The notes beneath the pieces are model-generated. The model made no database searches, was not told the DNA's origin, and saw only the letters and a program-made list of their open reading frames with translations. Positions 9,001 through 28,000 of a stretch of 64,000 nucleotides of DNA are shown here, piece by piece. The stretch's first letter is position 1. Each line of letters opens with the position of its first letter. Source of the stretch: an uncultured Candidatus Micrarchaeota archaeon (GTDB lineage: Archaea > Micrarchaeota > Micrarchaeia > Anstonellales > Bilamarchaeaceae); contig OY970229.1 in the NCBI GenBank assembly GCA_963714085.1, forward strand, positions 312,392-376,391. Reading direction: 5' to 3'. Made by a program: the position numbers and the translations under genes.

Positions 9001-9190
9001 GGGATGTCCAAGGCCTGGAAGGCCGTCGCGGTGTCGTTCGCGGTGGTTTCGTTGGTCTGGTTCAGGGAACCGTCCAAGTACAGCGAGCAGTTCATGGTAC
9101 TGGTCGCGCCCGTCGCATTGAACGTGAAGTTGACCGAGGCCGTGTTCGAGGCGTATCCTCCGGCAGGGGACATGAGGTCGACTGCCAGAG
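1..9190 (-). repeat. Gene B: in-frame tandem array of >=32 Ig-like domains (~282 nt each), running off the left edge
   Basis: It has the same unit consensus as the gene A array. The first unit (VDLMSPAGGYASNTASVNFTFNATGATSTMNCSLYLDGSLNQTNETT...) is the positional counterpart of the first gene A unit (VDLMYPPEAYLTNTTSIDFLFNATGTTPTLNCSLYIDGSLNATNETT...). 9,190 nt / 282 gives ~32.6 units. Confidence 0.8.
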
Positions 9191-12100
9191 TGGTCTGGTG
9201 CTGCAGTATGCCGTATGTGCCTGCCGGGTTCAGGTTCGCGAGGCTGAGCGTGCCTGCCACGGTGTCGAGCGCCGCGCCCGTGTCGCTCCAGCTCCCGTTG
9301 TAATTCCAGAGCTCGAACCTGGTTTGGTCGTATCCGTTAAGCTCTGAGCCGTTCCAGCTCCAGACTGTTGAGTCTATGGACACGTTGCCCGAGACGACCG
9401 AGATGTCCACGAACTTCTGCGCGAACGAGTTATAGCTCGGTGGAAGGGCGGCCGGGATGCCGGACCAGTTTATAACGTATACCTCGCCGTCATCCATCGT
9501 GTCGTTGATGGAGAGGTTGGTGAAGTTCTCCATGTTGCCCATCGGGTTGTCGAATATGATGCCGGAGAGGTTGAGCGTGATTGGGGAGCCGGAACCACCC
9601 ACGACCAGGTCGTTGGTGTTGTTGGATAGGTATTGTCCCTGGACCACGGTCTGGTCGGAATATTGTATTGTGAGGCCGTTGGCGCAGTTGGATACGCTGT
9701 TGTTGCGCAGGAAGGTGTCGTTGGACGACTCAACTGAGAGGCCGAGCCAGCTGCTGGTATTGAAGTAAGCAACGCGGCAGTCGATGATGTTGTCTGTGGC
9801 GTCGGACGAGAACGACCCACTCAGTTCAAGGTTACTGTAAAATATATTGCTCAGGTTGTTCCCGGAAATCACGGTTTGGTTGCCGTCATATACATAGATG
9901 CCTTCGCTGTTGGAGTGGGCAATGGTATTATTGATGAAACTGGAGTTGGAAAGCTCATTCGCGTATATGCCATCGCTGCCGACGTTAATGACCGAATTGT
10001 TGATGAGGCTTATCGCGCTTGATGTGATTATAATGAATCCGGCATACGAATCGTTGTCAGCGACATCGTTGGTGTAAGTGACATTGTTGACGTAGTCTGT
10101 CACGAAGCCCCTGGCGTTGAAAGACGATGATACGTTGGCGACCAGGCTGTCGTTCGTCAGGTACATGAGGAAAGCGTTGTTGTAGAGCGTGTCGGAGCCG
10201 TTCACGATGCTGTTCGTGACCGTGGAGCCGCTCGCGCCGCAAAGCTCGATCTCAGCCGCATCCAGGCCGTCCCATGGTACCGGCTCATCCGAGTAGTACA
10301 CCGGGCGGTATCCGGAGCCGATCAGGTCGGTGATGTTGTTCTGGCAATAGGAAACATCCCAATTGTAAGGTGGATTCGGGTTGGACGGGGTTACATCAAG
10401 GTCCAAATTGCTATTTTCCATAGCCGTGTTATTGTATACCGTGTTCAGGCTGGAGCCGTAGATGCTGATGCCAGTATTGCAGTTGTTTGCGGTGTTGTTG
10501 TATATGGTATTGTTGTCAGACGACTGGAGGGAGATGCCGTTACTGCTGATGTTATAGGCGATGTTGTCATGCAGGACATTGTTGTCGGACGAGTAGAGGA
10601 CGATTCCGTTACCGTAGCTCTGGAACACGTTGCCGGATACCAGGTCATCAGTGCTTGCGTTAATTAAGATGTCGTTGTAGTCGTTGCTGAGATTGTTGTC
10701 CGTGAGATTGTTGTTCGAGCCGTGGTTCAGCATGATGCCTGCGATAGTGCCGGACCATTCGTAGCTGTTCGTCACAGTGACGTTCGTTATTACGGAATAG
10801 GTGGCCGATTCCATGTCTATTCCGTGTCCGTAGCCGGAGATGTTCGGGCAGTTCTGGATAGTCACGTTCGTGAGCGAGGGGAACACCGCGATGCCGTAGG
10901 TGGTCGGGCCCGCAGGCGCATCCATCGTGATGTTGTAGCCGTTGCAGTCGAAGACCACGTCGGAAGAGTTTATCTCCACGCATGCCGTGCCGCCCTCGGC
11001 CATCTCCGAGGCGTCGTTCGGGGCCCCGAAGAGATTGTTCATCGGGCTGAATGTGCCGCTCGTGCTTATCACCGGGCACTCCTGGAAGCTCTCGAATATG
11101 CCGTAGGCGCCGGCCTGGCCCAGGTTCGTGAGGCCGAGCGTGTTCGCGCTGGTGTCCGGGGTGTCGTTCAGCAGGGTCCAGCCCGAGTCGTTGAGGCCCC
11201 AGAGCCCGAACCTGCCCGGTGTGTACCCGCCCTCGGCCACTTGGTCGTCGGTCCAGCTCCAGACTATCGAATCGATGGACATCGTGCTCGAGAGATTGGT
11301 GATGTTCACGAATGTCCGGGCGAAGGAGTCCTCCCCGGGCAGGAGGGCGGACGAGTTGCTGGTCCAGTTTATGGAATACTCTTCGCCCGGGTCCACGCTG
11401 TCGTTGATGGAGAGGTTGGTGTAGTTCTCCAGGCCGCCCAGCGGGTTGTCGAAGACGAGGCCGGAGAGGTTGATTGTCATCGGGGAGCCGGAATCGTCCT
11501 GCACCTGCATGTCCTGGCTGTTGTTGGAGAAGTACATGCCTTGTACGGATGTCTGATCAGAGCGTTCTATCAGCAAGCCGGCATTGGAGTTGTTGGAGGC
11601 GCTGTTGTTGATGAAGGTGTTGTTGGCGGCATTCACGATGTAGAAGCCGTACCTGCCGTTGCCGCACGCGAGGTTGTTGGTGAAAGTGCTGTTTGGACTC
11701 CATGACTGCAAGCCATCGAAAGAATTGTTGCACATGACATTTCCTGAGAACAGGTTTGGCGAGGCGTTGTCTCCGGCATAGGTGTCGGCGACGTAGATGC
11801 CTGCCCAACTGGAGTTGTCCGCGGTATTGCTGACGAAGCTGGAGCCGGAGGCCGGGTCTATGTCGATGTAGAAACCGTCAGCGATATCTCCGGCTGCCGT
11901 ATTGTTGGTGAGATTGAGCGCGGTTGAATTGGTTATATGGAACCCGGCGCCGCTGTTGTTGTTCGCAATGCCGTTGAGGTACGTAATCGCGTTTGAGTCC
12001 TGCACGTTGAAACCGTCAAAGCCGGAGTTGTCCGCAGTGTCGTCGAGGAATGTGCAGTTGGAGTCGTCTGACATCAAAAAGCCGTATGAGTTCCCATAGG

Positions 12101-15100
12101 AGGTCGTGTTGGCTATGGTCGTGTCGTTGGTGAACTCCATGAAGAGGCCGTCGTTGTTGAGCGTGTCGGAGCCGCTGACCACGCTGTCCGTGATGTTCGA
12201 GCCGTCCGCGCCGCACAGGATGATCTCGGCGGCGTCAAGGCCGTCCCACGAGACCGGCTCGCTGGAATAGTATATCGGGCGGCCTGCGGAGCCGGTGTTG
12301 TTGAGCACCGTGGTGTTCTGGCAGTCCTCCACGGAACCGGGGTACACGCCGAAATCGGAATAGCCGTTTTCCGCTGCAGTGTTGTTGTACAGGGCGTTCT
12401 GCGCGTAGTCGAGGATGCCGAAATTCTCGTTGTTGTCGGCGGTGTTGTTGACCAGGATGTTCTGCGACCCACCGTTATAGATGCCGATTTGGTTGTTGTC
12501 CGCGTGGTCGTTGGACAGGTTGGTCTGGTTCGATGATGAGAGCAGGATGCCGAACACGCTGTTGTTGTCGAAAATGCTGTTGGATATGGTGTTCTGGTTC
12601 GACGAATCAAGGGAGATGCCCCAGGTGCCGGAGTAAAAGCCTGCGCTGACTTCGGTGATGTTTGTGAAGACGCTGTCGTTGGACTGGTAGACGTAGACGT
12701 TGTAGGTGTAATTGGATATCAAAGGGCAGTTCTGCACAGTGACGTTGGTGAGCGAGCCGTTGAGCAGGATGCCGTAGCGGTCGGTGAACATGTAGTCGTT
12801 CGTGATGGTGTGGCCGTTGCAGTCGTAGACCACGTTCGAGGCGGCGATCTTCACGCATGCCGCGCCAGGACTCGGCATCTCCGATGCGTCGTTCGGGGCT
12901 CCCGTGTAATCGGAAGGCTGGAGATAGGTCCCCGGCGAGGTGATGACCGGGCAGCTGGTCGCGTTATAGGTCACGTTCCTCTCTTCGGTGCAGCTCTCGG
13001 CTCCGTTGATGTCCTGCGCGCAGCCGTAATAGGCGAGGTTGTCCTCCCCGAACGGCAACGAGCCGAAGGACTGATTTGTGGAGAACTGCCATTTGCCGGC
13101 ATCGTACTTGTTGAGGTTGGACTCGTAGAGCTGCTGGATCTCGGACGCGGAGAGGGTGCGGTTGTATACGCGGATCTCGTCTATCGTGCCCTGGAAGTTC
13201 TGGGAGAAGCCGGTGAAACCCATGCCGCCGACAAGGTATTGGCCGCCGGCGGAATTGAATACGGGATTATACGACGACGCGCTTCCTGATGCCGCACCAT
13301 CGATGTAGAAAGTCGCGGTGGAGCCGTCGTATGTAACGGTGAGCTGGTGCCAGTCGCTGTCCGCGACCGTGCCTGTCGATCCGCCGAGGACGACGTTGCA
13401 GGCCCAATCGAAGAACACTGTGTTATCAGCGGCTATGCCGAGGCCCCAGCCGTTGCAATCGTGGGTATATATGATGGCCTCGCCTCCAGAGACGCTGGTG
13501 CGGTCCCTCTTTATCCAGGTCGAGACGGTCATCGGAGTGTGATCCAGGTTGCCCATGGTGAAGTTGTCGTCCACCCCGTCGAAGTGGTACGCGCCGCCGT
13601 ATACGCCGTCCGAGGTCCATGCCGGGCAGGACGAGCCGCTGCACGTGGCGTTGTTGCCGTACATGCTCACGTCCGTGACGTGGCTGTCATTCTCCCCCAG
13701 GGCGGAGACGTTGTCGAAGTCGTACATCAGCACGAGGCTGCCATCATAGGGGGTGTAGTTCGTGCCGTTCCAGTCGTAGGTGAGCTGGCCCAGCGGATAG
13801 CGAGTCTCGTTCACGCTGATGTTGACCAGGATGCTTGAATTGGACGTGAACGCGGCCTCTGGCGGAGTGGGCGGGCTGAACGCGATGGCCGGCCCGAAGA
13901 CGCGGCTTGTTATATGCCTCGTTTCCGTGCATTTTCCGTGTCCGTTGATGTCCTGCGCGCAGCCGGAATAGGTGAAAATGTGGTCCCCGCCCGAGAGCAC
14001 GTCGAACGACTGGTTGATGGAGAACTGCCATTTGTTCGTGTCGTATTTGTCGAGGTTGGATTCGTAGAGCTGCATGACTTCCTGTGCCGAAAGCGAACGG
14101 TTGTAGACGCGGAGTTCGTCCATGCTCCCTTGGAAATAGCTTCCCACTCCGGCTCCTATGAGGTATTGCCCGCCGCTGGAATTGAACGTATCGTTGTAAG
14201 ACTGGCTTCCGGCCGGATTGCCGTCGATATAGAAGGTCGCGGTGGAGCCGTTGTACGACATGACGACCTGGTGCCAATCCGTGTCCGTGATAGTGCCCGT
14301 TGAGGCGATGGTGTTGACGCAGGTATGCGAGAACACCAGGGTGTTGTCAGGCCATATGAAAAAGCTCCAGCCGTTGCAGTTCCCGCTGGCGATGAGGCCC
14401 TGATAACCCGGGCGGCTGGTGCTGTTAAGCTTTATCCAGGTGGAAACCGTGAGCTGGTTATCATCCAGATTGTTCGCATTGAACTGGTCGTCCACTCCGT
14501 CAAATACGTACGCGCCGCCGTATACGCCGTCCGGGGTCCATGCCGGGCAGGACGAGCCGCTGCACGTGGCGTTGTTGCCGTACATGCTCACGTCCGTGAC
14601 GTGGCTGTCGTCCTCCCCCAGGGCCGAGACGTTGTCGAAGTTGTACATCAGCACGAGGTTGCCATCATAGGGGGTGTAGTTCGTGTTGTTCCAATCGTAG
14701 GTGAGCTGGCCCAGCGGGTTGAGCGTCTCGTTGATGCTGATGTTGATGGGGACGCCCGGGGCGCTCGTTACGTTGCCGTCGGCCGGGGTCGGCGGGCTGA
14801 ACGCGATGTCCGGCCCGATGTTGTGCAATGTGATGTTCCTCGTCTCGGTGCAGGCCGTATCGGCAGCGCTATCCTGCACGCAGGCGGAATATGTGAAGTT
14901 ATAGTAGCCGGCTGGCAGAGAGCCGAACGGCTGGTTGACTGAGAACTGCCATGTGCCTGCATCGTATTCGTCGAGGTTGGAGAGGTAGAGCTGCCCGACC
15001 TCGGACGGCAAGAGGCTGCGGTTGTAGACGCGCAGCTCGTCTATCTTTCCCGGGAAATATTGATCGGATGCAACAACGAGACCCCCTATCGTGTACGGCC

Positions 15101-18100
15101 CGCCGCCGGAATTGAAGGTATACCCGAAATATTGGTTCCCGGCCGAAGCGCCGTCTATGTAGAATCTCACGGTGTAGCCGTCGTCGGTCACGACGATATT
15201 GTGCCATTGCGTGTCATTGATTGTGCCTGCCGATTTGACGTGGTCGATGCATCTGTCTGCGAGCCACAGGGTATTGTCCGGTCCTACGTACAGTTCCCAA
15301 CCGCCGCAGTTCTGGGCGTCGATAATCTCCTTGCCGCTGGCGAAGCTGGTGGTGTCCAGCTTTATCCAGGCCGAGACGCTGAATATGTTCATGTCCAGGT
15401 TGCCCGTGGTGAAGTAGTCGTCCACGCCGTCGAAGTGGAATGCGCCGTTGTATTTGCCGGACGGGGTCCATGTGGGGCAGGTCGAGCCGCTGCATACGGC
15501 GTCATGGCCGTTCATGCTCGCGTCGGCGACGTGGCTGCCGTCCTCTCCCAATGCGGAGAGGTTGTCGAAATGATAGAGGAGCACGAGGTCGTCGGTTGGA
15601 TCGAGCGTGCGGTTCGTGCCGTTCCAGTCCAGGATGAACCGGGTGAGCGGATTCGAGGTCTCGTTTATGCTGATGTTTATCGGGACCGTGGAACCGCTCG
15701 TGTTCGTGCCCTCGTCCGGGGTCGGCGGTGCGAATGCTATCTGCGGCGGGATGACGTGGTGCGTTATGTTCCTCGTCTCCGTGCAGTTCTCGTTGGCAGC
15801 GGTGTCCTGCGCGCAGGCGGAATAGGTGAAATTGTAGTCGCCGGCCGGCAGAGAGCCGAACGGCTGGCTGGTGGAGAACTGCCATGCGCCGGAACCGTAT
15901 TTGTTGGGGCTGGATTCGTAGAGCTGCTGCATCTCATCTGCGGTGAGGGAGCGATTGTAGATGCGGACATCGTCCATCGTGCCGTTGAAGCAGCTGTTTT
16001 CCCCATCATAGGCGCATCCGAGCACGTATGGCGCGGCGCCGTTGAAGGTGGGCGAATACGGGTTCGCAATCCCTACCTGGACGCCGTCTATGTAGAATGT
16101 CGCTGTGTAGCCATCGTAGGTTAACGCGACCTGGTGCCATGTGTTGTCCGTGATCGTGCCTGCTGAGCCAATGGTGAAATGGCCGTGCCATTGGAGATAG
16201 AGATGGTCGCCCGAATCCACCCCGAAGCCCCAACCGTCGTATTGCGCGGGATGGAAGATGGTCATCCAGCCGGAGGAGTATGAACTCTTGTTTATCCATG
16301 CGGAGACAGTCATCTGGTTCATATTGAAGTTGCCCCTGACGAGGGCGTATTGCGAGCCGTTGAAATGCATCGCGCCGCCGTATACGCCGGCCGGGGTCCA
16401 GGTCGGGCAGGTCGAGCCGGCGCATTCCGCGTCATGGCCGCCCATGCTCGAGTCGATGATGTGGCTGCCGTCCTCTCCGAAAGCGGAGAAGTTGTCGAAA
16501 CGGTAGAGGAGCACGAGGTCGTCGCTGACGTCGAGCGTGCGGTTCGTGCCGTTCCAGTCCAGGATGAACCGGCTGAGCTGGTCGGAGGTCTCGTTCATGG
16601 TGGCGCTGATGGGTATTGTTGAATTGGACGTCACCGTGGCTTCGTCCGGGGTCGGCTGGGAGAAGGCTATCTGCGGCGGGATGGGCTGGAACGTAACGTT
16701 CCTCGTCTCTGTGCAGTTCCCGTTGTCGATGTCGTCCTGCGCGCAGGCGAAATAGGTGAAATCGTGGTCGCCGGCCGGCAAGGAAGCGAAGGGCTGGTTG
16801 GCGAAGAACTGCCATGCGCTCGCGTTGTCTTTGTTGAGGTTGGATTCGTAGAGCTGCTCTATCTCCATGTCGGAAAGCGCGCGGTCGTAGACGCGGACCT
16901 CGTCTATCTTTCCGTTGAAGTAATCGCCCCAATTAGGGTCCTTTCCCAGGGTGAACTTGTTCACGGTGTTCTGCCCGCTTGTCGGATACGTTCTGTATCT
17001 CACCCCGTTCTTATAGAACGTCACGCTGGACGCTGTGTATATCACCGCGACCTGCTGCCACTGGTTGAAATCAACCGGTGCGGTCTGCTGCCGATTAGGT
17101 CCTGTGTCCCCGGTGTATACCTCCCAATCGGACGTTCCGCCCTCTATAGTAAGGGTGCGGTCCCAGTTGTAATCATCGTCGCTGAACACGTCCTGCCGGC
17201 TTCCGCTCGTAGTTGTCGGATAGACCCACGCCACGAACGTCATGTACGGCATCGCGGAGGGCTGTATGTCGAGATTGGTGCCCAGAGCGTCGGATCCGTC
17301 GTATGAGAATGCGCCGCCGTATTTGCCGTCAGGCGTCCATGTCGGGCAGTTGCCGTTGCACGTGGCGTTGTTACCGTACATGCTCAGGTCCGTGACATGG
17401 CCGTCGCCCTCCCCCAACGAGGAGAGGTTGTCGAAGTTGTACATCAGGACCAGGTCCGGGCTGTACACGCTATCGTTATTCAGCTGGGGGCCGCATGTCA
17501 GGTTCATGGCGCTCGGCTTATAGCAGCGGAAGTCGCAGTCCCCGTAGGTGGGCCCGTAAGGCCAGCAACCGCCCCCGTATGTGACCGTGCACGAGCTGCT
17601 CCCTATCGCGCAGTTTCCGCAGTCGACGCCTGCGCCTCCGCCGCATGTACCGCATCCGACGCCCCATTTCGATGTGTAGCCGGATATCACGGTCCCTGCC
17701 GGGCAGGACAGGGTTATCGTAGACTCTTCGCCCGAGGCTTCATGGACGTTTACGACGCTGCTGTTGGCCGGGACGGAACTGCCGTTCCAGTCGAAGACGA
17801 ACTTTCCGAGAGGCAGCGTCCCCTCGTTGATGCTGATGTTGATAGGTATGGTCGAATTGGATGTGTTCGCGGCCTCATCTGGGGTCGGAGGGGTGAAGGC
17901 TATGCCTGGCGGCGTTACGGGGCAGAGCGGGGCGAAGATGCTTCCGAGATCGGTTATGTTGGCGAACACGAATTTGTTGACGGTGTCCACTCCGTATGAG
18001 GACGAGAAGTTTGCGGTGTCGGTTATCCATCCAGCGCCGTTTTGGGTGGTGTATTTTCCCATGAAGAGCAAGCTCTCGTTCAGCCGCGCGAGGTCCGCAG

Positions 18101-18413
18101 GGCTGTAGCTGAAGTTGAGGAAGAGGAACGAGTCCGGCGAGTTGGAGGTGGCTTCCACGAACCTGTTGATGTCTGCCGTGAGCACCGGCCTCCGGGCATT
18201 GATGCTGTTGGAGGAGCTGGTGCCGTTCTCGAAGAGCTTTATCTGCAGGGTGTTGTTCCCGGAATCGCCATAGCCGTATTCCGCGGCATGGTCGTAGAAG
18301 ATAATATATACGCGGTTGGGCGCCGTGCCCGCGACCCCGTAGGTGATGTTGCTGTCCACCCCGTTGGTGACTAGGTCCGACCACACGCCGGCGACCAGGT
18401 AATCCGAACCCTG
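1..18413 (-). CDS. Giant surface protein B, continuation after the frameshift (3'-partial; ~6,137 codons in-window). It contains a SUEL-like segment, 5 LamG cassettes, 2 beta-helix modules and >=32 Ig-like domains.
   Basis: This is the minus frame whose codon first bases are 2 mod 3. I checked codons at 17768, 8738 and 53, and all are in this frame. From 18413 the translation is collinear with gene A (QGSDYLVAGVWSDLVTNGVDSNITYG vs QDGDYLVAGLWTDLVSDGVNGTITYG). The ORF track lists no minus-strand ORF in this frame anywhere in 1-18413, as expected if there is no stop before the left edge. Upstream the frame is open only to a TAA at 18696-18698, and the only in-frame alternative start there is GTG 18450-18452. 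Confidence 0.85.
9191..11078 (-). other. Gene B: beta-helix module d plus cap
   Basis: CPVISTSGTFSPMNNLFGAPNDASEMAEGGTACVEINSSDVVFDCNGYNITMD (Cys codon 11076-11078). PbH1 turns follow, then the 2-Cys insert (YCQNNITDLIGSGYRPVYYSDEPVPWDGLDAAEIELCGASGS). The cap ends ...GTYGILQH. Confidence 0.7.
11079..12953 (-). other. Gene B: beta-helix module c plus cap
   Basis: CPVITSPGTYLQPSDYTGAPNDASEMPSPGAACVKIAASNVVYDCNGHTITND (Cys codon 12951-12953). PbH1 turns follow, then the 2-Cys insert (EDCQNTTVLNNTGSAGRPIYYSSEPVSWDGLDAAEIILCGADGS). The cap ends ...GAYGIFES. Confidence 0.7.
13115..17470 (-). repeat. Gene B: 5 LamG cassettes; the last four form a regular ~0.93-kb tandem cassette
   Basis: LV(L)(M/L)Y.FDN(L/F/V)S starts lie at about 17470, 16520, 15590, 14660 and 13730. 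Each cassette ends F(N/P/Q)G.(I/M)D(E/D)(V/L/I)R(V/I)YNR(S/T/A)L....(I/V/M).QLY. Shadow ORFs 15607..15825 and 16537..16755 are 930 nt apart. Confidence 0.8.
17495..17725 (-). other. Gene B: Cys-rich SUEL-lectin-like segment
   Basis: My translation is ITLSCPAGTVISGYTSKWGVGCGTCGGGGAGVDCGNCAIGSSSCTVTYGGGCWPYGPTYGDCDFRCYKPSAMNLTCG. It is positionally equivalent to gene A 59070-59305. Confidence 0.4.
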
Positions 18414-18844
18414 GTTATGCCCTGCGAACTCATGTAGTCCTCGTCGCAGCACGAGCTGTCGTCCGAGACTACGGTTTCGTTGTTCATGTAGATGAAGCCG
18501 TTCGTGCTTATCCTTATGTGGTCGTTCTGCCTTCCGAAAAGCGTGACGTTGAAGGGGAGCGTTATGTCGTCGCTGACGCCCTCGTCCCCGTACATCGACC
18601 CCAGGACGGTCATGCCAGATACGGGCGTGAGGTCCGTGGCGGTGTTGGATGAAAGGACGCTTCCGTTCGTCCCCGCGTAGTAGGCCACGGAGCCGTTATA
18701 ATCGACAATGGTCGGGCCGAAGGACGTGATGCTGCTGGGACTGCCCGCCCCGCCCGAGAGGCCCGTGACTTTGGTGCCGTCTCCCTGGGTCGAGAGTATG
18801 TCTATCTCGATGTTCGGCGAGCCGCTGTTTGTCCTAGGGCGCCC
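17925..18844 (-). other. Gene B: NIDO-like region, split by the frameshift
   Basis: ITLPFNVTLFGRQNDHIRISTNGFIYMNNE is in the upstream frame. YLVAGVWSDLVTNGVDSNITYG ... NNTLQIKLFENGT is in the downstream frame. The region is collinear with gene A 59500-60411. Confidence 0.4.
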
Positions 18845-21800
18845 GGAATCCTGGATGTTCACGTCCTTGGGCTCGAAGGACAGCGTGTTGTTGCCCAGGC
18901 TGAGGTTTTGGACCACGATGCCCGTGGAATCGTCGCTCGAGGAGAAGGCCCAGAGCGAGTTGCCTGATGCGTTGCAGCTGGTGAAATTGCTGTCCTGCGT
19001 CGAGTTGAGTGCGAAGCCGATGCTGTTGTTGTGCGCCGTGACTGAGGCGAAGGTGTCGTTGTCGGACTGGTAGGCGTAGAGGCCGTAGGTGTAATTGGAT
19101 ATCAGAGGGCAGTTCTGGACCGTCACGTTGGTGAGCGACGGGACGATCGCGATTCCGTAGGAGATGCCGGTTGTGCCGTTGCCGGTTATGGTGTCGCCGT
19201 TGCAGTCGAAGACGACGTTGGAGGCTGCTATCTTCACGCATGCCATGCCTCCATCGGGCATCTCCGAGGCGTCGTTCGGAGCCCCCAGGTAAGAGTTCGC
19301 CATGGTGAACGTCCCGGGCGAATCCACCACCTGGCAGGTCTGGATGGTCTCGAGTATGCCGTAGGTGCTCGCAGGATTCAGGTTCGTGAGGGCGAGTGTG
19401 TCCGCGCCGGTATCGAGCGCCGCGCCCGTATTGCTCCATGTTCCGTTGTATTTCCAGAGCTGGAAGCTCGATTCGTTGTGCCCTGAGCTCTCGGGATCGG
19501 TCCAGCTCCAGCGGATGGAGTCTATGGATACGGTCCCGGAGACTTTCGATATGTTCACGAACTTCTGCGCGAATGATACGCGGTTTTGCGGGAGGGTGGG
19601 CGGGCTATTCGCCCATTTTATCGTGTACGTCTCGCTTTTCAGCTGGTCGTTTATCGAAAGGTTCGTGTAGCCGGCCATGCTGCCCGTTGGATTGTCGAAC
19701 ACCACTCCTGTGAGGTTCACCGTCCTGTTGGTGCCGTCCGTCGTTATATAGAAACTTGCCACCGAATTGTTGAAGTAGCGGTCGTAGGAGATCTGCGTAT
19801 TGTTGCTTTTTTGGATGTATACGCCGTATTGGCTGTTGTCGTGCGCGGTGTTGTTGGTCAGGTTGTCGTTGTTGCTGCTTTGGAGGTAGAAGCCATAGCC
19901 GGAGCCGGACACCGTGTCGTTGGTGAACAGGTCTCCGTTGCTGCTTTGCGGGGAGAAGCCGTAACTGCAGCCGTATACCGTGTCGTTGGCGAACAGGTCT
20001 CCGTTGGACTGGTATGCGACGGCGCCGTACGTATAGGCCGATATCCCCGGGCAGTTCTGCACCGTCACGTTGCTGGCAGAGCTGCTGACCATTATGCCGT
20101 AGGTCGTTCCCGCGATGCCGTGGTTGGTTATCGCATGGCCGGCGCAGTCGAAGACCACGTTTGATGCGGTTATTTTCACGCACGCATTGCCTGCGAGCGG
20201 CGATACGCTGTTCGGGGCGCCGGAGTAGTCCCTGTCCATGGTGTAGAGGCCTGGAGCGGATATCACCGGGCAGTTGATGTTGTGGTATGTCACGTTCCTG
20301 GTCTCGGTGCAGTTCTCATTTGCGCCGCTATCCTGCACGCAGGCGGAATACGTGAAATTATAGTAGCCGGAGAGGGGAATGAAGCCGAAGGGCTGGTTGA
20401 GGAGGAACTGCGTGCTGCCGGGGTTGTAGCTGAGGGGATTGCCTAGATAGAGCTGCTGGATCTCCGATGCCGAGAGCGAGCGGTTGTAGATGCGGACCTC
20501 GTCCATCGTGCCGTTGAAGAACTCGCTGGAGGGGCTCGTGCCGTGCGAGCCGAGCATGAGCGGATATGGCGAGCTCGGGATGGCCCCGGATTGGGCGCGC
20601 CAGTTGTCAAGGACGCCGTTGATGTAGAGCTTCTCCTGGCTGCCGTCGTAGGTGGCTGTGAGCATGTACCACTGTCCAGAGCTCAGGACGGTGTTGGAGT
20701 CCAAGGCATAGCCGGGGTTCGCTGTCCAGAACTCGGCATGGACTCCGTTGGTGCGCAGCGCGTATGTCGCGTATGGGGAACCCCAATACGGCGTGATGGG
20801 GTTGGCCAGCTTGGTGATGAGGTCCTCGTAATAGGGGAAGTTGTCCGAGACATTGACCCACACCGAGAGGGTCAGCCCGTTGGTCGGGTCCAGCGATGGG
20901 CTGTCGGGCACTGTGAGGTAGTCGGTCCCGTCGAAGTGATAGGCTCCGTTGAACCTGCCGGCAGAAGTCCATTTCGGGCATGACGTGCCGCTGCACGTGA
21001 TGCGGTTGCCGTACACGCTAGAGTCGGCGATGTGGCTGCTGTCCTCGCCCAATGCGGAGAGGTTGTCGAAATGATAAAGGAGCACGAGGTCGTTGGTGGG
21101 CTCGTACGTGAGGTTCGTGCCGTTCCAGTCCAGGACGAGCCGGGTGAGCGGGTTGGAGGTCTCGTTCACGGTCACGTTTATGGGTATCGACGAATCGTTT
21201 GTTGCCGCCGCTTCGTCCGGGGTCGGCGGGGCGAATGCTATCTCCGGCGCGATGACGTCGTGCGTTATGTTCCTTGTTTCCGTGCAGTTCTCCGAGCCGA
21301 ACGCGTCCTGGACGCAGGCGGAATACGTGAAATTGTATTCGCCGGCGGGCAAAGAGCCGAACGGCTGGTTCGTGAAGAACTGCCAGTTGGTGGAATCGTA
21401 GAGCTGTGCTATCTCGGATGGCGGGAGGACGCGGTCGTAGACGCGCAGGTCGTCTATCAGGCCCTGGAAGTAGAAGCCACCGTCCATGTTCTGCTCCCCT
21501 ACCCCGTAGTGCCCTGCGCCGGAATTGAAAGTGTCGCTGTACCCCTGGCTGCCTGCCGGGACGCCATCTATGTAGAAGTTGACGTTGGAGCCGTCGTATG
21601 TGACGCTGACGAAATGCCAGGCCGTGTCAGTGATTGTGGAGGAGGATGCGCGGTCGCTATTGCACGTGTGGGTGAGCCGCAGTGTGTTGTCGGAATCGAT
21701 GCGCACGCCCCATCCTCCGCAGTTCATGGAGGCGAATATTCCGTCGTTGGAACCGACCCGGTCCCTCTTTATCCAGGCGGTGAACGTCAATGGGACGTTG

Positions 21801-24751
21801 TGGTCCAGGTTCACGCCGCTGTTGAAATAGGTCTGCGTGCCGTCGAACTGGTATGCGCCGCCGAATTTTCCGTCGGGCGTCCATGCCGGGCAGGACGAGC
21901 CGCTGCACGTGGCGTTGTTGCCGTACGTGCTCAGGTCCGTGACATGGTGGCCGTCCTCCCCCAAATAAGAGAGATTGTCGAACTCGTAGGCCAGCACGAG
22001 GCTGCTGTCGTATATTCCGTTGCCTGGCAACGTGCGGTTCGTGCCGTTCCAGTTGAAGACGAACGTGCTGAGGAGATTGGACGTCTCGTTCACGCTGATG
22101 TTGATGGGCATTGTGTAATTGGTTGTGCTGGCGCCTTCATCCGGGGTCGGCGCTGAGAATGCGATGGCCGGGGGGATGATGCGGAATGTCACATCCCTCG
22201 ACGTGCAGTTCTCGGACCCGAACATGTCCGCTATGCAGGCGGAATACGTGAAATTATGGTCGCCGGAGGGGAACAGGCCGAAGGACTGGGTCGTTGAGAA
22301 CTGCCAGTTGGTGGAGTTGTAGAGCTGCGCTATCTCGGATGCCGGCAGGGCGCGGTCGTAGACGCGCAGGTCGTCCATCGTGCCGTTGAAATAGGAGTCT
22401 CCGCCACCGGAGGTCCCGATCACGTAGTCCCCGCCTCCGCCATAGCTTACCGAGAAGCCCGGGTTTTCTTCCGGGATGCCATCTATGTAGAATATCGCGC
22501 TGGTACCGTTGTAGGTCACCGCGACATGCTGCCATGCTCCGTCGGTGACCGTGTCTGTTGAGATGGTCGTGAAATGGCCGCGCCATTCGAGATAAAGGTG
22601 ATTGTCATTCGTTATGCCGAAGCCGAAGCCGCCGTCGTTTCTGGAATGGAGGATATACATCCACTGGGGGGAGTCCGACTCCTTGTCTATCCATGCGGAA
22701 ACCGTCAGCTGGCTGTAGTCGAGGTTTCCTGTATCGAAGTAGTCCTGCACGCCGTCGAAATGGTATGCGCCGCCGTACTTGCCGTTCAGGGTCCACATGG
22801 GGCAGTCCGGGTCGGTGCACGTGGCGTTGTCGCCGTACGTGCTCAGGTCCGTGACGTGGTGGCCGTCCTCTCCCAGGTAAGGGAGGTTGTCGAACTCGTA
22901 GGCCAGCACGAGGCTGCTGTCGTATACGCCGTTGCCGGGCAGCGTGCGGTTGGTGCCGTTCCAGCCAAGGGTGAACACGCCGAGCGGGTTGGAGGTCGAG
23001 TTCATGCTTATGTTTATCAGGATGGATGAAGCGCTCGTTGTGCTGCCATTATCCGGGGTCGGCGGGCTGAAGGCGATGGCCGGCGGGGCGGGCTGGTACG
23101 TCACATCCCTTGACGTGCAGTTCTCGAAAGCGAGTGTATCCTGCGCGCAGCCGGAATACGTGAAGTTATAGTCGCCGGGCTGGAACGGACCGAAGGGCTG
23201 GTTGATGGAGAACTGCCATTGGCCGGGAGCGTATTTGTTGAGGTTGGACTCGTAGAGCTGTTGGATCTCCGATGCCGAGAGCGTGCGGTTGTAGAAGCGC
23301 ATCTCGTCCATGCTGCCATTTAAAAAGCCCCCTATGTAGCTTCCTATGTAATAAATGCCATTGTGATTTATCGGGTTCGAGAAAGGGCTGGTTCCGGCCG
23401 GAGCGCCGTCTATATAGTAGTCCACGCTGGAGCCGTCGTAGGTCACGGCGACTTGATGCCAATCCGTGTCCATGATCCTGCCTGTCGAGGGGGCGGCGTC
23501 GGCGATATACGCCTGCCCGAACCTCAGGGTATTGTCCGACCCGAGGTACAGGACCCAGCCCTGGCCGTTGTCAGTGGCGAGGCCCTGCAACCAGCCGATG
23601 TGGGTGCTGTCCAGCTTTATCCAGGTGGAGAATGTGAGCGGGACGGTGCTCAGATCGTTCGTAGTGAACTGCTCGTCCACTCCGTCGAAATGGTATGCGC
23701 CCCCGTACCTGCCGTCCAGCGTCCATGTCGGGCAGTACGGGTCTGTGCACGTGGCGGTGTTGTTGCCGTACATGCTCAGGTCCGTGACCTGGCTCCCGTT
23801 CTCCCCCAGCGAGGAGACGTTGTCGAAGTTGTACATCAGCAGAAGGCTGGGGTCGTAGGGCGTGTAGTTCGCGCCGTAGCTGATGGGATTGGAAAGGTAG
23901 AGCTGCTGGATTTCCGATGCTGAAAGTGAACGGTTGAGTGCCATGACCTCGTCCACCGAACCGTTGAAGAAAAAGAACGGGGGGCCATAATCATGGAACA
24001 GGCAGCCGATGCTGAAGCCATCGAGCGTCGAATCCGGAGATGCGGACGACGTTCCGGGAGTCACCACACCGTCAACATACAGGTATGTCGTTCCGTCCCT
24101 CCTTGTCATCGTTACATAGTACCACTGGTTTGCAGAAGGGAAGGCATAACCGCTATCTATAATTACGACACCGCCGAAAAGCCCTTCGAGATGGTCTCCT
24201 ATGACTCCAAAGCCGTAGCCGCCGTAATCACGCCCGTTGTAGACGGCTATGGTCGTCGCCTGCGGCAGGACCGCCGGATTTATCCATGCGGCCAGCGTCC
24301 AATTGTCCGTGGCGTTCGTGGCTGCGTTCGGGAAGCCGATGTAGCCATCGACTCCGTCGAATGTGTAAGCGCCCCCGTATTTTCCTGAGGGTGTGAACGA
24401 CGCTCCCCCGTAGACCGTTCCGACCCTTCCGAAGGAGCTCACATCGGCGACGCTCGTGGAAGTCTCTCCGAGCGCGGAGACGTTGTCCAGGTGGCACATG
24501 AGCACGAGGCTGCTGTCACTGGACGTGTAGTCCGTGCCGTTCCAGTCGTAGGTGAACGAACCCAGCGGGTGGGCGGTCTCGTTTACGCTTATGTTGACCA
24601 GCATGGTCCGGTTGGATACGGTCGCGGCTTCGTCCTGGGTCGGCGGGCTGAATGCGATGGCCGGTTGGGCGTGGCTGAGTGGCACGCAGGCCAGGCTGAA
24701 AAGCAGGGCCAGTAATAATGCTACGAATGTCACATTTCCCCTACGATGCAT
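18371..24751 (-). CDS. Giant surface protein B, N-terminal reading frame (2,126 aa as listed). It is terminated prematurely by a frameshift and is a paralog of gene A.
   Basis: ORF track 18371..24751, with ATG at 24749-24751. It carries a signal peptide, 5 LamG cassettes, 2 short beta-helix modules and the start of a NIDO-like region, collinear with gene A. The last 13 residues (RVRITWSPACGRT*) have no counterpart in gene A and are frameshift read-through. Confidence 0.9.
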   Translation of the reverse strand: MHRRGNVTFVALLLALLFSLACVPLSHAQPAIAFSPPTQDEAATVSNRTMLVNISVNETAHPLGSFTYDWNGTDYTSSDSSLVLMCHLDNVSALGETSTSVADVSSFGRVGTVYGGASFTPSGKYGGAYTFDGVDGYIGFPNAATNATDNWTLAAWINPAVLPQATTIAVYNGRDYGGYGFGVIGDHLEGLFGGVVIIDSGYAFPSANQWYYVTMTRRDGTTYLYVDGVVTPGTSSASPDSTLDGFSIGCLFHDYGPPFFFFNGSVDEVMALNRSLSASEIQQLYLSNPISYGANYTPYDPSLLLMYNFDNVSSLGENGSQVTDLSMYGNNTATCTDPYCPTWTLDGRYGGAYHFDGVDEQFTTNDLSTVPLTFSTWIKLDSTHIGWLQGLATDNGQGWVLYLGSDNTLRFGQAYIADAAPSTGRIMDTDWHQVAVTYDGSSVDYYIDGAPAGTSPFSNPINHNGIYYIGSYIGGFLNGSMDEMRFYNRTLSASEIQQLYESNLNKYAPGQWQFSINQPFGPFQPGDYNFTYSGCAQDTLAFENCTSRDVTYQPAPPAIAFSPPTPDNGSTTSASSILINISMNSTSNPLGVFTLGWNGTNRTLPGNGVYDSSLVLAYEFDNLPYLGEDGHHVTDLSTYGDNATCTDPDCPMWTLNGKYGGAYHFDGVQDYFDTGNLDYSQLTVSAWIDKESDSPQWMYILHSRNDGGFGFGITNDNHLYLEWRGHFTTISTDTVTDGAWQHVAVTYNGTSAIFYIDGIPEENPGFSVSYGGGGDYVIGTSGGGDSYFNGTMDDLRVYDRALPASEIAQLYNSTNWQFSTTQSFGLFPSGDHNFTYSACIADMFGSENCTSRDVTFRIIPPAIAFSAPTPDEGASTTNYTMPINISVNETSNLLSTFVFNWNGTNRTLPGNGIYDSSLVLAYEFDNLSYLGEDGHHVTDLSTYGNNATCSGSSCPAWTPDGKFGGAYQFDGTQTYFNSGVNLDHNVPLTFTAWIKRDRVGSNDGIFASMNCGGWGVRIDSDNTLRLTHTCNSDRASSSTITDTAWHFVSVTYDGSNVNFYIDGVPAGSQGYSDTFNSGAGHYGVGEQNMDGGFYFQGLIDDLRVYDRVLPPSEIAQLYDSTNWQFFTNQPFGSLPAGEYNFTYSACVQDAFGSENCTETRNITHDVIAPEIAFAPPTPDEAAATNDSSIPINVTVNETSNPLTRLVLDWNGTNLTYEPTNDLVLLYHFDNLSALGEDSSHIADSSVYGNRITCSGTSCPKWTSAGRFNGAYHFDGTDYLTVPDSPSLDPTNGLTLSVWVNVSDNFPYYEDLITKLANPITPYWGSPYATYALRTNGVHAEFWTANPGYALDSNTVLSSGQWYMLTATYDGSQEKLYINGVLDNWRAQSGAIPSSPYPLMLGSHGTSPSSEFFNGTMDEVRIYNRSLSASEIQQLYLGNPLSYNPGSTQFLLNQPFGFIPLSGYYNFTYSACVQDSGANENCTETRNVTYHNINCPVISAPGLYTMDRDYSGAPNSVSPLAGNACVKITASNVVFDCAGHAITNHGIAGTTYGIMVSSSASNVTVQNCPGISAYTYGAVAYQSNGDLFANDTVYGCSYGFSPQSSNGDLFTNDTVSGSGYGFYLQSSNNDNLTNNTAHDNSQYGVYIQKSNNTQISYDRYFNNSVASFYITTDGTNRTVNLTGVVFDNPTGSMAGYTNLSINDQLKSETYTIKWANSPPTLPQNRVSFAQKFVNISKVSGTVSIDSIRWSWTDPESSGHNESSFQLWKYNGTWSNTGAALDTGADTLALTNLNPASTYGILETIQTCQVVDSPGTFTMANSYLGAPNDASEMPDGGMACVKIAASNVVFDCNGDTITGNGTTGISYGIAIVPSLTNVTVQNCPLISNYTYGLYAYQSDNDTFASVTAHNNSIGFALNSTQDSNFTSCNASGNSLWAFSSSDDSTGIVVQNLSLGNNTLSFEPKDVNIQDSGRPRTNSGSPNIEIDILSTQGDGTKVTGLSGGAGSPSSITSFGPTIVDYNGSVAYYAGTNGSVLSSNTATDLTPVSGMTVLGSMYGDEGVSDDITLPFNVTLFGRQNDHIRISTNGFIYMNNETVVSDDSSCCDEDYMSSQGITRVRITWSPACGRT
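18845..19336 (-). other. Gene B: short beta-helix module b (counterpart of gene A module 3)
   Basis: CQVVDSPGTFTMANSYLGAPNDASEMPDGGMACVKIAASNVVFDCNGDTITGNG ... IGFALNSTQDSNFTSCNASGNSLWAFSS ... EPKDVNIQDS. Confidence 0.6.
19337..20272 (-). other. Gene B: short beta-helix module a plus cap (counterpart of gene A module 2)
   Basis: CPVISAPGLYTMDRDYSGAPNSVSPLAGNACVKITASNVVFDCAGHAITNHG ... GYGFYLQSSNNDNLTNNTAHDNSQYGVYIQKSNNTQISYD ... FAQKFVNIS..SIDSIRWSW ... STYGILE. Confidence 0.7.
20440..24530 (-). other. Gene B: 5 LamG cassettes with small flanking domains
   Basis: Five copies of ..L(V/L)L..(H/F/Y)(L/F)DN ... (K/R)(Y/F)(G/N)GAY.FDG ... W(H/Q/Y).V(A/S/T)(V/M)T ... (Y/F)(I/V)(D/N)G ... (F/L)(N/Q)G(S/T/L)(V/M/I)D(E/D)(V/M/L)(M/R).(L/Y)(N/D)R.L..SEI.QLY. 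Most are preceded by (I/A)AF(S/A)(P/A)PTPD...N(I/V)(S/T)VNET..(P/L)L..F...WNGT and followed by WQF(S/F)..Q.FG....G..NFTYS.C......ENCT.R. Confidence 0.8.
24668..24751 (-). other. Gene B: Sec-type signal peptide
   Basis: MHRRGNVTFVALLLALLFSLACVPLSHA / QPAIAF. It has a basic n-region, a 15-residue hydrophobic core and a small-x-small (S-H-A) site. Confidence 0.75.
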
Positions 24752-24772
24752 GCAGGTGTTACTTATACAGCA

Positions 24773-24780
24773 TTTAAAAA
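24773..24780 (-). promoter_or_regulatory. TATA-like box (minus strand TTTTTAAA) for gene B; leaderless or near-leaderless start
   Basis: The minus strand reads GCAAGAATC-TTTTTAAA-TGCTGTATAAGTAACACCTGC-ATG. The box is 22-29 nt upstream of the ATG and is preceded by purine-rich AAGAA. No GGAGG-like Shine-Dalgarno lies between the box and the ATG. Confidence 0.4.
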
Positions 24781-24876: not shown

Positions 24877-24901
24877 GGAGCATTACAAGAATCAACACTC
24901 C

Positions 24902-24975
24902 GCCCTCGTAGTCTAACCTGGACAGAACGTCAGCTTGCGGAGCTGATTATCCGTGTTCAAATCACGGCGAGGGCG
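24902..24975 (+). tRNA. tRNA-Arg (anticodon GCG)
   Basis: Manual cloverleaf. The acceptor GCCCTCG (24902-24908) / CGAGGGC (24968-24974) is 7 bp and perfect. The anticodon stem is TCAGC/GCTGA with loop TTGCGGA, placing anticodon GCG at 24937-24939. The T arm is CCGTG-TTCAAAT-CACGG (24951-24967). The discriminator is G at 24975, and no CCA is encoded. Weak point: the D stem GTCT/GAAC has one C-A mismatch and one G-U pair. Confidence 0.85.
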
Positions 24976-24990
24976 ATTTCAATCACCGGC

Positions 24991-24997: not shown

Positions 24998-25012
24998 GAA
25001 GGAAAGCCCGGC

Positions 25013-28000
25013 TCAGGCCGGCGGCGGATTCTGCGGCGGGGTTGCCGGAGGCGACTGCCTCGTGTGCCAGGGTTTGCGCGGCGGCCTGCCGGCGGTGAGG
25101 AACTCGTATGCCAGGAAAGCCAGGACCATGGCCGCGGATATCAGCACCGGCATCCACCAGTAGCTCTCCAGTCCCGGGGACGGAGGCTGGACCGCGCCCT
25201 GCGCCGATGAGTTCGACGGGGGCTGGACCGCCATGTTGAGGCTTAGCGTCGTGGAGACGCCTCCGTGGGCCACGTTCACCGTGTAATAGCCGTGCAGCTG
25301 GAACGGGAGCATGGATTCGCCGTTCGCGTCCGTGGTGACCTGGGAGCTCGTCGCGTTGGGCCCGTATATCTGGAGTATGGCGTTCGCCAGCGGAAGCCCG
25401 CCCACCGTGAGCAGGATCACTCCCTCTCCGCTCGGGCCCTCGTTGGAGCCGGTGATGTTCGGGACGTCGCACGAGTTGGCCACGCAGAACTGGCCCTGGC
25501 GGCAGTCGGTGTCCGCGCAGCATTCGTATTGGTGCCAGGCATGGTTCTCGACGTAACCGCAGGAGCTCGTCACGGACTGGCAGACCCCCAGGGTCGTGTT
25601 GCAGAAGGCCGTGGACGGGCATTGCGCGTCCGCTGTGCAGTTGACCTGGGGCGAGACCGGCGGGACCACAGGCGGGGTGACGTTCGCCGGGGCCCCCGCG
25701 GCGCATGTCGTGTACGTGAAGTTGTTGATTCCGGACCTGTAGCCCTGCTTGGAGCCGTCGATCTCGTAGCTCCCGTTCGCGGCCAGGTGGAACACCGCGG
25801 TGGCGTCGCTTCCGGTCGTGGCCGAGTAAAGCGTCCCCTCGTACGGTTTCGTGAGCAGGAGCTTCACGCTCACGCCCGATGTGGACGAGGTCACGGTCAC
25901 CTCGTCGGACGGGCATGGCGCTATCACGTAGGAGAGCAGCAGCGACGGCTCGGTGTACGGCCCTGACGCGTATCCTCCGCCACCGCCTCCTCCGCCTCCC
26001 CCTCCGGATGGCGGGGGCGGGGGCGGCGCTGGAGCGGATATCGTGAAGACGTAGCCCGCCGACGAGTTCGTATTGCCGTAGATGTCGGTGCAGGTCACTA
26101 TCCAGGTGTGGCGTCCCAGCGCGACGAGCGGGCTCGTCTGGTCGGAGGAGCCGCTCACGAAGGCGTCGTCGGTGTAGTTGGGCGACCCGTCCAGGTAAAG
26201 CGAGCAGTTCATCGTGGGGGACGCGGCATCCGTCGCAGTGAAGTTGAGGTCCACGACCATGGGTGCGCTCGATGTCAGGCCGGCTCCGTTCGCAGGGCTG
26301 TTGAGCGCTATGTTCGGCAGGACCGAGCTGGAGTTGAAGCTCCTGGTCTCGCTCGTGTTCGCGTTGCCCGCGTTGTCCGTGCACGTCACGTACCAGGTGT
26401 GGTTCCCGTCGCTTATGCCGCTGACGCTGAAGACGGCCAGGGTGTTGTTCGCCGCGGGCTCGGTCTGCTTCGGGACGCCGTCGATGAAGAGCGAGCAGCT
26501 CATCGCCGAGGCGAGGTTGTCCGTCGCGGTGAAGTTGAATGCGACCGCCGCTGTGGTGAGCGACTGGTTGTACGGGGATAGGAGGCTCACGGCCGGGGCG
26601 GTCGTGTCCACGGTGAAGCTCCTGGGGATGCTCGTGCCGTTGTTGCCGGCCCCGTCGATGCAGGTGACGTTCCAGGTGTAGGCCCCCTCGCCCGTGACGT
26701 TGTAGCCCAGGGCCGTCAGGGTGTCGTTGGATGCGGTCGTGGAGTTGACTACCGCGCCGTTGATGGTGAGGTTGCATGAGGCGTTCGGGAAGAACGGGTC
26801 CGTCTCGTTGAATATGAAGTTCAATTGCGTCGACGAGCTGTTGAAGCCGTCGGCCGGGGAGACGAGGATTACGGTCGGCCCTGTGGTGGCGACCGTGAAG
26901 CCCCAAGTCGCGCTGGTGTTCGTATTGTTGGCGAAATCCTTGCAGGAGACGCTCCATGTGTGCGGGCCGCCGACCAGGTTCGCGTCGCCCATGTCAGCCG
27001 GTACATTGTTCGTAGCGGTGGTCGAGTTCACCGCGTGGCCGTCCACGGTGAGGTTGCATGATGCGGTCGGGTATACCGGGTCCGTCTCGTTGAAGCTGAA
27101 GTCTATCGAGGTCGCCGGGGTGGCGCTGTTGTTGTACGGGGAGTTGAGGCTCACGGTCGGGGCCGTGGTGACGACCGTGAAGTTCTCCGTTCCGCTCACA
27201 TTGCTGTTGTTGGCGTTGTCCGTGCAGTTGACGTACCAGGTGTGGTTCCCGTCGGCTATGCCGCTGACGTTGAAGACGGTGGCGGTGTTGTTGCTCACCG
27301 AGGAGTTGGTCCGGTTCGGGGCGTCGTCGAGGACGAGCAAGCAGCTCATCTTCTGGGCCAGGTTGTCCTGAGCCGTGAAGTTGAAGTAGACCGACGATGA
27401 ATTGAGCGTCGACAGGTTGTATGGGGAGTTGAGGCTTATGCTCGGCGGGGTGGTGTCCACCGTGAAGTTCCTCGGGAGGCTTGAGCTCGTGTTGCCGCCG
27501 TCATCCGTGCAGGAGACGTTCCAGGTGTAGGCCCCGTCGGCCGGGACGGTGTAGCCCATGGTCGTCACGGTGCTGTTGTTGGCGGTGGTGGAGTTCACCG
27601 ATGCGCCGTTGACCATGAGGCTGCACGACGCGTTCGTATAGAACAGATCCGTCATGTTGAAGGTGAAGTTCAGCGCGGTAGCCGAGGTGTTGAGGCCGCT
27701 GATTGGCGAGAGGGAGACCACGATCGGACCTCCTATGACGACCGTCAAGCTCCAGGTCGCGCTGGTGTTCGTATTGTTCGCGAAGTCGGTGCAGGACACG
27801 CTCCATGTGTGCGGGCCGGCGCTGATGCCCGAGTCTCCCAAGGTCGCCGGGGTGTTGTTCGTCGCGGTCGTGGAGTTGACCGAATGGCCGTCCACGGTGA
27901 GGTTGCATGATGCGGTCGGGTATACCGGGTCCGTCTCGTTGAAGCTGAAGCTCAGCGACGCCGCCGCGGTGACGCTGTTGTTGTACGGGGAGTTGAGGAC

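Follow-up and report, generated by a model that had tools for sequence, protein, structure and literature searches.

A one-base deletion very probably interrupts one of two tandem giant genes in an uncultured Micrarchaeota archaeon

Does a giant open reading frame that stops inside a conserved domain, and continues in another frame for thousands of codons, represent two genes, one gene that is read through a programmed shift, or one gene that has lost a base, either in the cell or only in its assembled sequence? The question is raised by a 64,000-nucleotide stretch of DNA from an uncultured Candidatus Micrarchaeota archaeon, which was analysed over its full length and is called the window here. 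Two co-oriented genes in tandem, A and B, fill about 99.6% of it (3-64000, minus strand), and both exit its ends. Our results indicate that gene B is very probably a single gene interrupted by an unprogrammed deletion of one nucleotide. The stop codon at 18371 would then be due solely to the absence of one C from a conserved CCC (ACC CAG), at 18413-18414. The features of the window on which the argument draws are the following.

3..18413, minus strand: downstream part of gene B (B2), 6,137 codons in the -1 frame, no stop, exits the left end of the window
17952..18661, minus strand: NIDO-like domain of gene B, single, split by the frameshift
18371..18412, minus strand: out-of-frame tail, 13 unrelated codons (RVRITWSPACGRT), then TAG at 18373-18371
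18413..18414, minus strand: frameshift site, CC in gene B and CCC in A and in the relatives L001, L002 and L059 (ACC CAG/CAC)
18371..24751, minus strand: upstream part of gene B (B1), 2,126 aa, ATG at 24751
24668-24751, minus strand: signal peptide of B1, MHRRGNVTFVALLLALLFSLACVPLSHA, with an LSHA/QP end
24763..24780, minus strand: TATA-like A/T-rich elements, TTTTTAAAT and TATAA, read from the sequence 12-29 nt upstream of the ATG of gene B
24901..24976, plus strand: tRNA-Arg(GCG), found by Rfam, within the 260 nt that separate the stop codon of A from the start codon of B, on the strand opposite to the genes
25013..64000, minus strand: paralogue gene A, 12,995 codons open (64000 to 25016), 5' end beyond the window
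25097-25162, minus strand: transmembrane helix (membrane anchor) of A, followed by a Pro-rich tail
25463-25639, minus strand: Cys-rich module of A
59531..60226, minus strand: intact counterpart of the split domain in A (A residues 1223-1454), with the site ctgggttatg at 59981-59990

On the plus strand gene B reads ctggttatg at 18411-18419, where paralogue A has one g more. The corresponding coding-strand stretches are GGC ATA ACC AGG GTT CGG in gene B and GGC ATA ACC CAG GAT GGG GAC TAC in A. Gene B remains in frame with A through SSQGIT, and a step of one base back at 18413 regains the homology (QGSDYLVAG). Base 18413 closes the codon of Thr2113 in frame 0 and opens the Gln codon CAG in the -1 frame, a double role that is expected from a one-base deletion. 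Read in frame 0, the peptide after GIT is out of frame and the truncated product ends in the tail peptide RVRITWSPACGR, so that 2,113 of the 2,126 amino acids of the ORF at 18371..24751 are homologous. Once the base is restored, the peptide across the junction becomes SSQGITQGSDYLVAG.

A scan of the minus strand for stop codons found frame 0 of gene B open from 24811 to 18374, and the -1 frame open from 18695 to base 3 at the window edge (6,231 codons, 6,137 of them past the shift point at 18413). By BLASTP, frame-0 residues 1494-2114 of gene B match residues 706-1304 of A with 62% identity (E=0), and residues 92-620 of the -1 frame match residues 1301-1803 of A with 44% identity (E=6e-113). 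Since these two matches abut, homology leaves frame 0 and enters the -1 frame at the same residue of A, far beyond what would be expected by chance. Elsewhere in the window, tblastn of A and of repaired gene B placed all 282 of 282 HSPs in the expected frames, and a search for a second lesion across the 64 kb, by tblastn frames and stop scan, found none. The break in gene B is the sole frame break within 64 kb. The initial annotation had explained the break by the loss of a single base from a CCC run within one gene, which is borne out by the BLASTP frames and also by the codon alignment and the split of the domain profile described below. As causes it had named a sequencing or polishing error, a very recent pseudogenisation, and a secreted lectin fragment that leaves its stalk orphaned. 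The strings and coordinates that it quoted (18411-18419 and 59981-59990) were exact on recheck, translation reproduced its 13 unrelated residues followed by TAG at 18371, and the frame that it described as open for more than 6,100 codons after a -1 shift at 18413 does regain homology by BLASTP and runs for 6,137.

The difference between the paralogues could in principle reflect a base gained by A instead of a base lost by B. Five independent relatives, found by protein, genome-representative and metagenome searches, bear on this point.

P0001: a 448-aa protein from an ENA metagenome
L001 and L002: two contigs of the uncultured Candidatus Micrarchaeota archaeon AlinenSediments_bin-0946, with homologous ORFs at 5972-11599 (L001) and 69-5207 (L002)
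L059 and L060: two JGI metagenome contigs

The reading frame passes the site without interruption in each of the five, as it does in A. Codons at the site were compared between gene B on the one hand and paralogue A with four relatives (L001, L002, L059 and L060) on the other. ACC CAx was present in four of these five (A, L001, L002 and L059), against ACC-AG in gene B. Since ACC CAx is shared by A and three of the outgroups and ACC-AG is found in B only, it is gene B that lost one C of a conserved CCC, and a gain by A is ruled out by the same outgroup alignment. The spacing of the residues is also informative: the conserved Q and DY are six residues apart in A, L001, L002, L059 and L060, and gene B reaches this spacing only with one base restored. 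Moreover, the junction peptide of L001 and P0001, ITQGSDYLVAGLW, is identical to that of repaired gene B (ITQGSDYLVAG). The homologous ORF is a single gene on each of the two Micrarchaeota contigs, 1,875 aa long in L001 and 1,712 aa long in L002. The initial annotation had named two separate genes in related genomes as the observation that would speak against it, and what we found in five of five relatives was one ORF, none with an independent start.

The closest genomic relatives of the window are Micrarchaeota contigs. The two from bin-0946 are 54-58% identical over ~400 aa, and 71% and 64% identical over the 227-aa domain query. Neighbouring genes on the L001 and L002 contigs are of archaeal type, namely a TrmB regulator, an ApgM-type phosphoglycerate mutase and a T2SSE-type ATPase. 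The last of these, a type IV pilus/archaellum-like ATPase gene, lies directly 3' of the homologue in L001 (11942-13567, plus strand). Taken with the archaeal-looking promoter of gene B, these identities and neighbours make a Micrarchaeota-like (DPANN) source probable; within the window, the one tRNA apart, there is no phylogenetic marker gene.

The break is situated about one third of the way into a single-copy conserved domain of ~200 residues. From an alignment of the A domain and 29 homologues translated from the relatives' loci, with B left out, we built a domain HMM. The frame-0 product of gene B matches positions 4-80 of this profile and the -1 frame matches positions 77-207, and repaired gene B matches 4-207 as one domain with 162 bits. 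Invariant residues flank the break, with ISTNG.I upstream and I.YG.AG..P.R downstream. By these profile matches, the cut is inside a predicted fold and not between modules. An AF2 model of the domain, computed from a 7-sequence alignment and of low confidence (pLDDT 44), places the break in a loop just before the YLVAG strand, a placement that carries no weight in the argument.

The initial annotation had located the split inside a domain that it called NIDO-like. The location agrees with the two-part HMM match and with the invariant residues on both sides. The name holds by way of the homologues, since 14 of the 30 aligned sequences match Pfam NIDO (best E=9.1e-8), but not for A and B themselves, in which Pfam finds nothing (E<=10). 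A search of the A and B domains against Pfam and NCBIfam gave no match, and Pfam gave none for repaired gene B at E<=10 or for the A domain at E<=1. The gathering score of Pfam NIDO (PF06119) is 25 bits, and the A and B domains do not reach membership of the family; a further sequence, P0002, has a weak NIDO match (E=0.063). The label therefore seems acceptable for a remote, transitive relationship and not as Pfam membership. The motif pattern ISTNG...(W)xDL...YG..G..PNR is common to NIDO and the split domain, whereas the A and B domains have an extra Cys-containing loop exactly where the frameshift lies.

The only PDB sequence matched by the domain profile was that of 8gl6 chain D, at residues 27-227 (E=7.9e-20). 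This chain is labelled 'RemA' in the file and corresponds to RemZ (Fjoh_0803) according to PMC10994853. Only the C-terminal domain is resolved in 8gl6 (PMC10994853), and consequently the match, which is to the sequence of the N-terminal domain, carries no structural information. The gliding adhesins RemA and RemZ of Flavobacterium johnsoniae resemble the proteins discussed here in being large cell-surface adhesins with lectin-type modules, and in the N-terminal domain match. They differ in being bacterial proteins whose export goes through the T9SS by way of a C-terminal sorting domain.

A break of this kind might be put to use by the cell. Under programmed recoding, a -1 slip by some ribosomes or polymerases would produce a full-length anchored protein and the others would produce a soluble head. 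The shift needed is indeed -1, the two frames overlap over 325 nt (18371-18695), and -1 frameshifting exists in principle in archaea, as in the alpha-fucosidase gene of Sulfolobus solfataricus. However, the overlap contains neither an X_XXY_YYZ heptamer, the site itself reading A ACC AGG, nor a homopolymer of five or more bases for transcriptional slippage. The 113 nt downstream of the site fold no more stably than shuffled sequences do, with a minimum free energy of -38.1 kcal/mol against a mean of -39.4 (z=0.35; z=1.53 for the corresponding stretch in A), and an Rfam scan of the window for frameshift elements found none, the tRNA being the only match. The shift is also absent from A, L001, L002, L059, L060 and P0001, and its position is within a domain fold and not at a boundary of modules. 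We consider such recoding extremely unlikely. A phase-variable contingency gene was rejected as well, the tract being CC (ancestrally CCC) against the about 7 nt or more that are needed. Very unlikely, too, is a missing C that is both real and used, such that the population, or each cell by means of low-level -1 slippage at a non-canonical site, would toggle between two forms, an anchored full-length adhesin (at least 8,250 aa) and a lectin head of 2,113 aa that is released. Were this true, a DPANN archaeon that depends on a host would be varying its surface or secreting a decoy.

Alternatively, the two parts could be bona fide genes, one for a secreted lectin head and one for a separately started stalk protein. 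Gene callers would list two ORFs, and there are in-frame GTG codons at 18452, 18386 and 18359. These three are the only in-frame starts nearby, and they come without an evident ribosome-binding or promoter context, the sequence upstream being GC-rich and coding; a plausible restart codon near the break was sought and none was found. A scan for promoters of bacterial type only found nothing on the minus strand near the break. The downstream product would lack a signal peptide, the cut falls within a single conserved domain that has invariant residues on both sides, and the relatives all have one ORF over the site. Taken on this evidence, a pair of genuine genes is scarcely credible.

Read as one gene, repaired gene B has at least 8,250 codons and is incomplete in the window, its C-terminus lying outside. 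According to Pfam and, for the NIDO-like domain, the domain HMM, B1 contains five Laminin_G_3 lectin-type domains, two NosD/right-handed beta-helix domains and the first third of the NIDO-like domain, and B2 contains the remaining two thirds, another five Laminin_G_3 domains, additional beta-helix domains and a long array of Big_13 Ig-like domains. A signal peptide of the LSHA/QP type, as in B1, is also found in L001. The A/T-rich elements close to the ATG fit a start of its own for gene B, with a putative archaeal promoter and a very short leader or none. Gene B is a tandem paralogue of A, and its product would be a giant adhesin of the cell surface, 8,250 aa or more in length and of type-I membrane plan, with the order, from the N-terminus, of signal peptide, head (LamG lectin-type domains, beta-helix and one NIDO-like domain) and Big_13 stalk. 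By analogy with A and the smaller relatives, a transmembrane anchor should be present at its C-terminus.

The plan of gene A is that of gene B enlarged, with beta-helix domains, one NIDO-like domain, many Laminin_G_3 and beta-helix domains, ~6,000 aa of Big_13 and a C-terminal cassette. It is entered in the ORF table as 25013..63892 (minus strand, 12,959 aa). As an uninterrupted ORF of more than 30 kb with 12,995 open codons, and still incomplete, it passes the size of more than 10,000 aa by which West-Roberts et al. define 'large' genes; few archaeal proteins above 10,000 aa have been reported. The traits of LamG-rich adhesins are found across the two genes taken together, with the signal peptide on B1, Laminin_G_3 domains in B (5+5) and A (at least nine), and the transmembrane anchor at the C-terminus of A. 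An adhesin function of A and B may be inferred from this domain content together with what has been proposed for LamG-rich proteins of Micrarchaeota.

Several further observations concern the two genes. N-glycosylation sequons (N-x-S/T) are dense, with 455 in repaired gene B and 766 in A, about one per 17-18 residues. The C-terminal cassette (25097-25639, minus strand, in A) consists of a Cys-rich module (C..DA.C......C.......C), a transmembrane helix and a basic or Pro-rich tail, and it is also present in P0001, L001 and L002, relatives that are 7-30 times smaller; the cassette of P0001 has a sub-threshold Pfam match to CarboxypepD_reg (carboxypeptidase-regulatory-like). The Big_13 stalk arrays lie on the minus strand at about 28487-43840 in A and about 700-5930 in B, and at the DNA level the array repeats in a higher order every ~850 nt, a length of roughly three units with 94-95 aa in each. 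Self-alignment of the stalk gave offsets of 858, 1704, 2549, 3402 and 4245 nt with 72-76% identity, and since self-identity is no higher than this, the array is old and diverged, not recently amplified. In addition, a GC-rich hairpin (CCGGCCTGAGCCGG) with a T-rich run at 25008-25021 (minus strand) overlaps the stop codon of gene A, and resembles a terminator by a scan of bacterial type only.

If gene B is one gene with one base too few, that base is missing either from the cell or from the assembled sequence. It is, by a little, likelier than not that it is missing only from the consensus, through a sequencing or polishing error, in which case the cell would make the full-length gene B protein. 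Two kinds of precedent are known from other giant genes: long-read assemblies contain single-base indels that 'prematurely terminate giant genes', and in Illumina-only assemblies a single giant gene has come out as two through local errors (bioRxiv 10.1101/2023.11.21.568195).

The deletion may instead be real, a possibility to which we attach a chance that is appreciable though somewhat short of even. It would then be a very young truncating mutation, which makes of gene B either a pseudogene of recent origin or a null allele at the level of the strain. What the cell exports would be a soluble head of 2,126 aa without stalk and membrane anchor, and the remainder of 6,137 codons would either be untranslated or not be exported for want of a signal peptide, having had no time to decay. 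Computed over the downstream frame (18.4 kb), 2.5% of single substitutions make a stop codon; under neutrality, the chance that the frame contains a stop would be 50% at 0.15% divergence and 95% at 0.64%. The lack of any stop in 6,137 codons consequently means that the mutation, if real, is very young, and a recent event agrees with the intact frame, which limits its age to less than about 0.6% of neutral divergence. A long-standing pseudogene was rejected, given one frame break in 64 kb and 6,137 downstream codons without a stop.

Other considerations also favor a real deletion. A gene of 25 kb is a large mutational target, host-dependent organisms often have surface adhesins that vary or can be dispensed with, and the function could be taken over by paralogue A. 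The anchors are at the C-termini of A, P0001, L001 and L002, and a truncation would therefore free the head. The run is of only three bases and not a long homopolymer. Consensus indels are rare in short-read assemblies, and a real deletion would be the better reading if the assembly were Illumina-only. On the other hand, there is one lesion only, without a sign of relaxed constraint, and breaks in giant genes have frequently been assembly errors in published experience (bioRxiv 10.1101/2023.11.21.568195). Consensus error and young mutation are inseparable from the sequence, since both predict a single lesion followed by a pristine downstream frame.

We also considered the runs of identical bases in the window, which number 1,403 of three bases and 88 of five or more, none of them frame-broken. 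As the 88 longer runs are intact, a generic homopolymer-error process is not strongly indicated; as regards error versus mutation, however, the statistics of homopolymer length are not informative. Read on the minus strand, the post-deletion site at 18411-18415 is CCAGG, an instance of the CCWGG motif. Systematic errors in nanopore consensus sequences are known to occur at methylated motifs of the CCWGG type, a context that would apply here if the organism methylates the motif and was sequenced by nanopore.

Misassembly or collapse between the paralogues was rejected, as no pair of repeats in the window exceeds 87% DNA identity over at least 150 nt. Second copies from the population were sought in several ways. 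An exact-protein look-up returned none, and neither did a 30-mer search of viral contigs. The best match in a protein search had 60% identity, that among genome representatives 71%, and that in JGI metagenomes 47%. None of these collections contained an independent copy.

Frameshifts like the one in gene B have been described before in giant genes, and the break is an ordinary one. In the cases of West-Roberts et al. 2023 (bioRxiv 10.1101/2023.11.21.568195) the same indel of one nucleotide ends an ORF early, two adjacent 'genes' are in fact one, and the downstream frame is fully intact, as it is here. Those cases differ in that they come from Omnitrophota and that Illumina reads served to prove the errors and to correct them, whereas for the Micrarchaeota-like gene B an error is one of two candidate causes.

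As to the genes themselves, LamG-like (jelly-roll) surface proteins are expanded in Micrarchaeota/DPANN, for example in 'Ca. Mancarchaeum acidiphilum' Mia14 (Golyshina et al. 2017, PMC5498576). A role in host-cell contact has been proposed for such LamG-rich proteins of Micrarchaeota, and in Mia14 the LamG genes are linked to type IV pilus loci (PMC5498576), a linkage that the T2SSE-type ATPase next to the homologue in L001 echoes. Proteins of the Mia14 type share with A and B that they are secreted or anchored surface proteins rich in LamG/concanavalin-A-like domains. Judged by domain content, A and B belong among these LamG-rich surface proteins of Micrarchaeota/DPANN and are far larger than their nearest relatives, with at least 12,995 aa in A and at least 8,250 aa in B against 1,712-1,875 aa. 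What sets A and B apart from the LamG-rich relatives is an added stalk, about 6,000 aa of Big_13 repeats.

In conclusion, gene B should be annotated as one giant adhesin gene or as a frameshifted pseudogene, and not as a 2,126-aa protein followed by an orphan of more than 6,000 aa. A genuine deletion would show that this lineage can lose or release one of its two tandem giant adhesins. The break itself is of little biological weight. The giant genes around it are remarkable and merit attention as a separate finding; A and B would take up more than 6% of the genome if their source has a DPANN genome of roughly 1 Mb.
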